Source: Candidatus Thalassarchaeum betae
GTDB taxonomy: Archaea > Thermoplasmatota > Poseidoniia > Poseidoniales > Thalassarchaeaceae
NCBI GenBank assembly: GCA_003193925.1
Contig: PSPG01000014.1
Coordinates: 1 to 36,534 of the forward strand
DNA: 36,534 nt
Direction: 5' to 3'
Shown here: positions 2,655-3,179 of the stretch, piece by piece
How the letters are laid out: each line of letters starts with the position of its first letter
Position numbering within the stretch: position 1 is the stretch's first letter
Notes under the pieces: model-generated
What the model saw: the letters and a program-made list of their open reading frames with translations, nothing else
The model's database searches: none
Told to the model about the DNA's origin: nothing
Translations under genes and position numbers: made by a program

Positions 2655-3179
2655 TCACCGCTCCTTGCGGGTGGCGACGATGGAGGCTGCTGTGATTGCC
2701 GCGACGGCCAACCCGAAGGCGAAGCCGGGAATCCCATCATCCTGCGTGTGTTCGTCGTGCATGTCACCACTCATGTCCATCTGGGTGGCTGTGTGGACGG
2801 CGGAATCGTTGTTCACCCAGGTGACTGTGACACCGGGTTGGATCTTCACCGTGCTCGGTTGGTAGCTGAAGCCGTCGATGTAGATGGTGACGTCGTCAGC
2901 GCGGGCATCAGAGTCGTCGGAGACGTTCACCCAGCCGGTGAAGTCGGGGAAGCCTTCGTGAGGCGGGTGCGGAGTGCAGGAGTACATGTCATTCGACGCC
3001 ATCGTGAAGGTGTGTGACCAACTCTCATTCTGAGCCAGTTCTCCGCTGTCCCACAACTCCATCTCTTTCGCGCTTGCCGAAGGCAAGAGGAACATGAGGG
3101 GTAAGAGCAGCATCAGGGCGGCCCCTAACCGCACAGTAGTTCGGGTTTTGTTCTCACCTGATTTTCTTGATTTATTCAT
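2655..3179 (-). CDS. Secreted plastocyanin/amicyanin-like cupredoxin (circularly permuted) with PGF-CTERM anchor
   Basis: Signal peptide (..PSASA); WDSGEL..SHTF..YSCTPHP; FSYQPSTVKIQPGVTVTWVNND..HT; C-terminal IPGF + TM + RKER. Start 3179 chosen from the TATA position. Confidence 0.85.
   Translation of the reverse strand: MNKSRKSGENKTRTTVRLGAALMLLLPLMFLLPSASAKEMELWDSGELAQNESWSHTFTMASNDMYSCTPHPPHEGFPDFTGWVNVSDDSDARADDVTIYIDGFSYQPSTVKIQPGVTVTWVNNDSAVHTATQMDMSGDMHDEHTQDDGIPGFAFGLAVAAITAASIVATRKER

Follow-up and report, generated by a model that had tools for sequence, protein, structure and literature searches.

The DNA analyzed here, referred to as the window, is a stretch of 36,534 nucleotides from Candidatus Thalassarchaeum betae, an archaeon of the class Poseidoniia (family Thalassarchaeaceae); it comprises positions 1 to 36,534 of the forward strand of contig PSPG01000014.1 (assembly GCA_003193925.1). 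Near one end of the window, a 174-codon open reading frame (ORF) on the reverse strand (positions 2655-3179) encodes a 174-residue cupredoxin in which the half of the domain that normally comes last along the chain precedes the half that normally comes first. The likely start codon is the ATG at 3179; the ORF as listed begins at a TTG at 3215, 12 codons further upstream. From the N- to the C-terminus, the gene is divided as follows:

3069-3179, reverse strand: Sec-type signal peptide with the start codon, from the translation (residues 1-37, ending in PSASA before KE)
2922-3068, reverse strand: C-terminal-type cupredoxin half (residues 38-86, corresponding to strands 5-8), with Cys68, His71, a 6-residue loop insertion and an invariant Phe80
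2892-2921, reverse strand: closing linker SDDSDARADD (residues 87-96), which connects the former C-terminus with the former N-terminus
2781-2891, reverse strand: N-terminal-type cupredoxin half (residues 97-133, corresponding to strands 1-4), with His129
2733-2780, reverse strand: stalk of Met, His and acidic residues (residues 134-149) between domain and anchor
2655-2732, reverse strand: PGF-CTERM sorting signal with the stop codon (residues 150-174; a PGF motif followed by a hydrophobic helix and a tail of basic residues)

A first-pass annotation, made by a model from the letters of this DNA, had described positions 2780-3065 (residues 39-133) as a naturally circularly permuted blue-copper protein. 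Its reading of the ORF was exact, as were the codon positions it gave for the three putative copper ligands (Cys68, 2976-2978; His71, 2967-2969; His129, 2793-2795) and their order along the chain, Cys-His...His. It also stated that the permutation places the membrane tether next to a His ligand, and along the chain the PGF motif does start 22 residues after His129. The absence of an axial Met from the protein, a point left implicit there, is taken up with the copper site below.

The ends of the protein look like those of a secreted and anchored one. The cleavage site of the signal peptide is a putative one; a hydrophobic core and an Ala-x-Ala end are kept in all 11 close sequences. At the other end, residues 147-172 match the PGF-CTERM model TIGR04126 with 25.6 bits (cut-off 24.5), and the same genome carries an archaeosortase A gene (TIGR04125, 86.3 bits against a cut-off of 75; G000:C19:20892-21704). 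Because the new C-terminus leads via the stalk into the sorting signal, processing by archaeosortase A is expected to tether the domain to the cell surface through a lipid.

Order of the two cupredoxin halves

We compared the protein with cupredoxin profiles from several sources. Pfam PF00127 matched the whole protein with 27.7 bits (gathering cut-off 21.2), split into two stretches, as the first-pass annotation had expected of a domain search. When the halves were scanned apart, residues 49-72 matched profile positions 65-88 of 99 (E 0.18, on its own a weak match), whereas the match of residues 98-129 to positions 6-37 of 99 had an E of 0.002. In NCBIfam, residues 48-74 fell on positions 50-76 of 83 in the amicyanin model TIGR02657, and residues 105-131 on positions 13-39 of 99 in the plastocyanin model TIGR02656. 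A profile of the family matched solved amicyanins with E 3e-19 and both stretches crossed over: profile positions 78-120 aligned with chain residues 14-56, and positions 36-74 with chain residues 66-104, both being significant singly (i-E 1e-5 and 8e-11). In this alignment His129, Cys68 and His71 occupy the ligand columns, making them the putative ligands.

We also built a hidden Markov model (HMM) from 104 single-domain proteins of canonical, N-to-C order; because only canonical-order domains were used for its training, circularity was avoided. On the native protein this model gave two partial matches in swapped order, with 23.8 and 46.9 bits, the C-type half falling on positions 45-76 of 85 and the N-type half on positions 2-43. 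Exchanging the halves in silico, a check that the first-pass annotation had proposed, turned these into a single match over positions 2-76 of 85 with 81.1 bits. All 12 permuted proteins tested in this way gave one full match after the swap, with a gain of 8-12 bits.

The canonical chain order (strands 1-8; His...Cys...His...Met) fails for this protein, since its halves are reversed in every profile used. The claim that amicyanin/plastocyanin halves are swapped here is thus borne out by Pfam, NCBIfam, the amicyanins of the Protein Data Bank (PDB) and the canonical-only HMM alike, and by these alignments the swapped order can be taken as confirmed, far beyond chance.

The protein nevertheless appears, from its sequence, to be a genuine cupredoxin by descent, whose topology fails the canonical order and whose branch also fails the axial-Met feature. 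Both halves are clearly homologous to PF00127 and to Paracoccus-type amicyanin (1AAC, 2QDV), with which it shares the C-T-P-H-P start of the ligand loop, the N-x-D-x-x-x-H-T/N context of the N-half His, and the size of the domain. Where amicyanin has the ligand order His...Cys-His-Met, the window protein has Cys-His...His, no axial Met, and 6 extra residues past the second His. Identity to canonical single-domain proteins such as P0168 reaches 52% over 77 core columns. The equivalog cut-offs were failed by a wide margin (TIGR02657, 28 against 110.2 bits; TIGR02656, 27 against 87.85; halocyanin TIGR03102, 20.1 against 93.8), and scores so far below those of amicyanin and plastocyanin indicate that the protein is not an orthologue of either; it belongs to none of the three subfamilies.

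Such proteins fall into an annotation blind spot: this one barely passes Pfam, in two pieces, and fails every NCBIfam cupredoxin cut-off. A PF00127 scan of its own genome at E 0.001 overlooked the gene because the match was split, and the public names of its relatives are only 'plastocyanin' or 'hypothetical protein'.

Conservation and distribution

The same layout, including signal peptide and PGF anchor, was found in 10 relatives with 56-74% identity. An exhaustive profile search returned 7226 proteins at E 0.001 or better, of which the best 150 were examined; among these 150 were 7 further small proteins with 28-38% identity, the same C-then-N order, and their own signal peptides and C-terminal anchors. 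We sorted the 269 proteins collected into classes with half-domain HMMs, obtaining 18 permuted proteins, 104 canonical ones and 147 multi-unit arrays. Each of the 18 carries one C-type and one N-type unit, each half once per chain, and Cys68, His71, His129, Thr130 and Thr132 are invariant in all 18. A second word-index search, made with a wider alignment, yielded no new permuted protein, all 18 among the 269 being already in the alignment.

Three further permuted ORFs are independent of model building. One, in G162, a genome of the same family (L103, 250-861), encodes 203 residues and has a much longer, Met-rich tail at the position of the stalk. The second (L032, 854-1291) combines the permuted order with a bacterial-type lipoprotein signal, and its chain ends two residues past the His strand. 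The third (L068, 369-3392) holds a permuted unit within a 1008-residue ORF. In G063, a genome of the class, the permuted gene is present twice, on separate contigs (L101 and L104).

Close relatives stand on metagenome-assembled genome (MAG) records of Candidatus Poseidoniia or Thalassarchaeaceae. One of them, at 65% identity (L020), is on a Flavobacteriales MAG record; this is probably a misbinned archaeal contig.

The first-pass annotation had named an assembly artefact as a way in which its reading could fail. The order recurs in independent assemblies, in distant lineages and in a contig from an RNA library, which disposes of that concern. Near-identical DNA was found in sequencing runs from four studies, none of them marked as a potential source, and no joints or indels were seen in the contigs aligned over the permuted gene. 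The RNA-library (metatranscriptome) contig, of 506 bases, is colinear with positions 2619-3118 with 12 mismatches and is an independent assembly of the same order. In none of the four runs do RNA-library contigs cover positions 3119-3300, and in three of them most of the gene is missing too; these gaps are given no weight here.

Linker length and predicted fold

The linker between the two half-models is 7-9 residues long in all 18 permuted proteins, which represent about 8 independent lineages, and 7-11 residues long in the three further permuted ORFs. The same junction was measured in 444 linkers of tandem arrays (144 proteins), where its length has a median of 32 and a range of 2-362 residues, with 2.9% of the linkers within 7-10. 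A length that stays constant below 40% identity fits a loop bridging the old termini within one domain.

Structure prediction, another check proposed in the first-pass annotation, was performed on residues 38-141 using AlphaFold2 without templates and an alignment of 18 sequences. The trimmed domain was predicted as one compact body with a mean predicted local distance difference test score (pLDDT) of 92.8 and a predicted template modelling score (pTM) of 0.84, all five models having a pLDDT of at least 88. In the model blocks 41-60, which include the linker, the mean pLDDT is 96-97. The strands modelled for the C-type half (residues 53-58, 62-67 and 81-86) match expected cupredoxin positions. 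A model of the full-length protein (pLDDT 52.5) was discarded in favor of the trimmed domain. The model, together with the constraint on linker length, supports a chain that would close into one compact domain.

In structure searches with the model, both Foldseek and VIA-align returned as top PDB neighbour 5SYD, an engineered circularly permuted azurin. In Foldseek (350,542 PDB chains) this match had a probability of 0.98, a TMq of 0.54, 89 columns and an E of 0.089; in VIA-align (48,161 representatives) it had a Z of 5.7 and a root-mean-square deviation of 3.3 over 85 aligned residues, the next row having a Z of 4.2. The aligned ranges, model 1-89 on chain 36-131, suggest that 5SYD and the model share the connection from strand 8 through a linker to strand 1. 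The second engineered permutant, 5YT7, aligned over model 33-101 and chain 2-77 with a Z of 2.6. No wild-type cupredoxin chain was among the rows shown in the Foldseek 'pdb' list and the two VIA-align lists; aligners that follow the order of the chain would be expected to miss them, and nothing was concluded from the absence.

Taken together, the sequence matches, an order kept across independent assemblies, a single-domain AlphaFold2 model and permuted azurins as PDB neighbours support the window protein as a natural circular permutation of an amicyanin/plastocyanin-type domain. The engineered proteins (5SYD, 'cpAz'; 5YT7, 'circularly permutated Azurin 3') are comparable in that their old termini are likewise linked and new termini opened elsewhere in the type-1 sandwich; they differ in being man-made and only 15-16% identical to the model. 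The azurin permutants cpN42 and cpF114 are likewise type-1 sandwiches with joined old termini; according to the preprint on them, the engineered permutants keep wild-type-like Cu(II)-bound structures (bioRxiv 10.1101/2025.10.10.681544). The comparison suggests that the natural cut site, in the loop after the strand of the first His, differs from those of the azurin permutants. Our search of the literature on permuted cupredoxins, azurin and blue copper proteins found no account of a natural permuted cupredoxin, only engineered azurin work and texts that use 'permutation' in other senses, a provisional result given that subscription journals were mostly outside its scope; the ESM Atlas returned only generic cupredoxin clusters.

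Genomic context

The permuted gene is the first of three genes on the reverse strand, the other two encoding putative subunits of a terminal oxidase:

2087-2632, reverse strand: coxB-like gene whose subunit II product bears a CuA-type motif; its start lies 22 bases past the cupredoxin stop codon
394-2070, reverse strand: coxA-like gene for subunit I of a ba3-like (B-family) heme-copper oxidase (Pfam COX1, 125.4 bits)

The coxB-like ORF has weak matches to Cupredoxin_1, COX2 and TIGR02866 (CoxB). Subunit I matches Pfam COX1 with only 125-130 bits, and its nearest solved chains are those of subunit I of the Thermus ba3 oxidase (E about 1e-24). An ordinary COX1 gene (480 bits) lies on another contig of the genome, and the coxB/coxA pair of the window represents a second, divergent heme-copper oxidase.

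We examined seven related loci, of which one (L020) ends inside the gene; in the six with downstream DNA, the start of coxB lies directly downstream of the permuted gene. The permuted cupredoxin is therefore the probable electron donor of the oxidase. Colinear coxA genes at 75% identity are present in L018 and L021, with identical figures that may reflect one sequence. Across the class, the full-length permuted gene was found in 4 of 301 genomes, and no match to the window CoxA reached E 1e-20 in a search of 40 related genomes; the three-gene unit accordingly looks like a rare accessory module. The G+C content is 0.58-0.61 over window positions 1-5000, the end that holds the oxidase, cupredoxin and peptidase genes, against 0.62-0.66 over positions 5000-12000, a mild hint that the cupredoxin/oxidase module arrived later.

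Besides the permuted gene, the 92%-complete genome was found to contain no cupredoxin other than one domain in a 2668-residue ORF. That domain is of canonical order (G000:C7:79639-79935; L003, L004), and comparable giant frames with cupredoxin matches occur in several genomes of the same genus.

A functional parallel is halocyanin of Natronomonas pharaonis, likewise a small surface-anchored archaeal cupredoxin tied to a terminal oxidase, whose putative donor it is; halocyanin is described as carrying single electrons in haloarchaea in association with terminal oxidases (PMC8305020). Its halves stand in canonical order and its lipid anchor, going by the title of a cited paper, is N-terminal, whereas the window protein has a C-terminal PGF-CTERM anchor after the His strand. 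A relative from the family of the source archaeon (L008) has a PGF-CTERM cupredoxin of canonical order, 161 residues long, which adjoins an ORF read from its sequence as a heme O synthase-type prenyltransferase.

The putative copper site

Like its 10 close relatives, the window protein has six inserted residues after C-T-P-H and lacks the Met (window positions 2940-2978). The 7 distant permuted proteins, as well as G162 and L032, retain the full C-x2-H-x2-M motif. In the alignment produced by hmmalign, the invariant Phe80 stands in the Met column; an equally short alternative alignment places residue 74, which is H, N, D or E, in that column and keeps the C-x2-H-x2-X spacing. In type-1 sites, an axial Phe or Leu gives a three-coordinate, high-potential center, and an axial Gln, Glu or His a perturbed one.

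There is a broader proposal, which we put forward tentatively and hold to be slightly less probable than its opposite: that this is the first type-1 copper electron-transfer protein found to be circularly permuted in nature, that the permuted proteins form an old family, and that the Poseidoniia branch carries a new copper site tuned to the ba3-like oxidase. Members of such an old family have archaeal PGF-CTERM anchors, a bacterial-type lipoprotein signal, or a place as one unit in a large multidomain protein. The Poseidoniia site would then be three-coordinate beside Phe80 or would have an N/O donor at position 74, and a site of this kind would be one not described for small cupredoxins. The new C-terminus would, if the proposal is true, also change the way in which the domain sits at the membrane.

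That a rigid protein frame sets metal geometry and redox potential is an idea for which blue copper proteins serve as the textbook example, and azurin permutants were built by chemists to probe how the connectivity of the chain affects that frame. A natural family of permutants would be the same experiment run and optimised by evolution, including a branch in which the axial position has changed. It would likewise be a clean example of β-sandwich permutation, probably by duplication, for which both the arrays and the product are abundant in public data.

Origin of the permuted proteins

The family profile matches giant tandem cupredoxin arrays most strongly, e.g. a protein of 3670 residues with 17 matched stretches (P0012). 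The profile runs unbroken across the array junctions, from the C-half of one domain through the linker to the N-half of the next (for example, profile 43-134 in one stretch), so that the arrays offer ample material from which duplication and trimming could produce a permuted protein. The first-pass annotation had proposed exactly this origin, tandem duplication followed by trimming. It is plausible: arrays are abundant (147 of the 269 proteins) and the profile spans their junctions. Neither a direct intermediate nor a specific ancestor was identified.

Tandem multi-cupredoxins such as P0042, with three domains, and P0012 share the string of C-half, linker and N-half with the window protein. 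In the arrays the missing halves stand on either side of this string and linker length varies freely; the window protein, in contrast, contains a single copy of each half, placed between a signal peptide and an anchor.

In a FastTree phylogeny of 390 domains over 77 columns, 15 of the 18 permuted proteins fell into one pure clade with a support of 0.94. In an IQ-TREE analysis of 75 rows, the free maximum-likelihood tree did not place the permuted proteins in one group and needs 5 changes of order; a tree in which the 12 permuted rows were held together had a log-likelihood higher by 13.4 (p-AU 0.667). A single origin is thus not rejected and not proven by these sequences, as the alignment, with 74-77 columns, is too short to decide between one origin and several.

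Proposed function and alternative explanations

We consider it likely, though well short of certain, that the gene encodes a permuted, secreted and anchored cupredoxin that closes within one chain and probably serves as the donor to the ba3-like oxidase. The chain would begin with strands 5-8, which carry the Cys-x2-His copper loop and are normally last; a short linker of fixed length would follow, and then strands 1-4 with the other His ligand, normally first. The two halves would pack as one β-sandwich, in which Cys68, His71 and His129 could rebuild a copper site. As the first gene of a cupredoxin-coxB-coxA unit, its product would most likely shuttle single electrons to the CuA center of CoxB, a role modelled on that of halocyanin in haloarchaea. 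The permuted cupredoxin is, from the gene order, probably the surface-anchored electron donor of the adjacent oxidase, and uncultured Poseidoniia archaea would likely use it to carry electrons to an accessory ba3-like oxidase.

Several observations weigh against this reading. The electron-donor role is deduced from the gene neighbourhood, and the permuted gene of G162 adjoins carA rather than a cox gene. With no axial Met, a 6-residue insertion and a variable residue 74, the ligand loop may not form a classical type-1 center. Only the trimmed domain folds confidently, on just 18 sequences, and the structural matches are modest: the Z of 5.7 for 5SYD is below the caution line of 8 of the tool, and no Foldseek match reached E 0.001, although it is telling that a permuted azurin came out on top. 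The gene is rare in the class and was found in none of the 20 genomes searched from the same genus. The RNA-library contig does not in itself prove transcription, and in the free IQ-TREE phylogeny the permuted proteins do not come together.

The most probable alternative, which we nevertheless regard as unlikely, is that the permuted fold serves in copper handling instead of electron transfer, i.e. Cu(I) capture by the Met/His-rich stalk and the altered site, delivery to the CuA site of CoxB, or buffering at the cell surface. The loss of the axial Met and the expansion of the ligand loop in the Poseidoniia branch would suit such a role, as would the position of the gene directly before that of the CuA subunit. 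So would the residues right after the His129 strand, where the 11 close sequences show hardly any variation at Met134, Met136 and His141, and the Met- or His-rich stretches at the equivalent place in the permuted proteins G162, P0154 and P0160. This segment could be a Cu(I) site, or merely a stalk; acidic or variable stalks are usual ahead of PGF-CTERM anchors. The Cys and two His residues, on the other hand, are invariant, as in electron-transfer cupredoxins, the distant permuted relatives keep the complete C-x2-H-x2-M motif, and scans with Pfam and NCBIfam gave no match to the Sco, PCuAC or CopC families.

Somewhat less probable still is an exchange of halves between copies of the protein, the fold being rebuilt between chains as a domain-swapped dimer or a longer chain. 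Neither half could fold alone, and the string of C-half, linker and N-half belongs to two different domains where it occurs in tandem arrays. Engineered azurin permutants are, moreover, reported to have lower stability than the wild type (bioRxiv 10.1101/2025.10.10.681544). Against this stand the compactness of the model, which was obtained for a single chain and is confident through the linker, and the narrow range of linker lengths in permuted proteins compared with arrays, which fits a loop within one domain.

That the gene is nonfunctional, whether as a chimera created in assembly or as what is left of a decaying two-domain gene after loss of its first and last quarters, is very improbable and largely refuted: trimming a tandem pair would leave exactly such an arrangement, and the gene is near a contig end in a metagenome-derived genome, but the signal peptide, anchor and ligand residues are all intact, many independent assemblies show the same order, as do lineages with identities as low as 28%, the aligned contigs are free of joints and indels, and the structure model is confident.

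On the balance of these points, the secreted and anchored permuted cupredoxin that closes in one chain is the reading we retain, with copper binding, closure within the chain, electron donation and an origin from tandem arrays as its predicted elements.

Surroundings of the gene

The region upstream of the permuted gene contains one further feature:

3222-3248, reverse strand: hairpin followed by a TTATATT stretch, terminator-like, in the 114-base gap upstream of the cupredoxin gene

Judged by its sequence, this element could terminate transcription of the upstream gene, act as a TATA-like box for the operon, or do both. A promoter and terminator scan of the upstream region found 1 terminator-like site against 1.8 expected in shuffled sequences, and the RNA fold of the region had a z of 0.70; neither value is above chance.

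The upstream gene itself (3294-4772, reverse strand) encodes an M14 zinc carboxypeptidase (147.7 bits), whose tail of PGW, hydrophobic and basic residues resembles PGF-CTERM. Further along the window, a 758-residue ORF (26011-28284, forward strand) matches the cytochrome c assembly family PF01578 (79.9 bits), and the window also carries archaeal housekeeping genes, including those for aIF5B and deoxyhypusine synthase.

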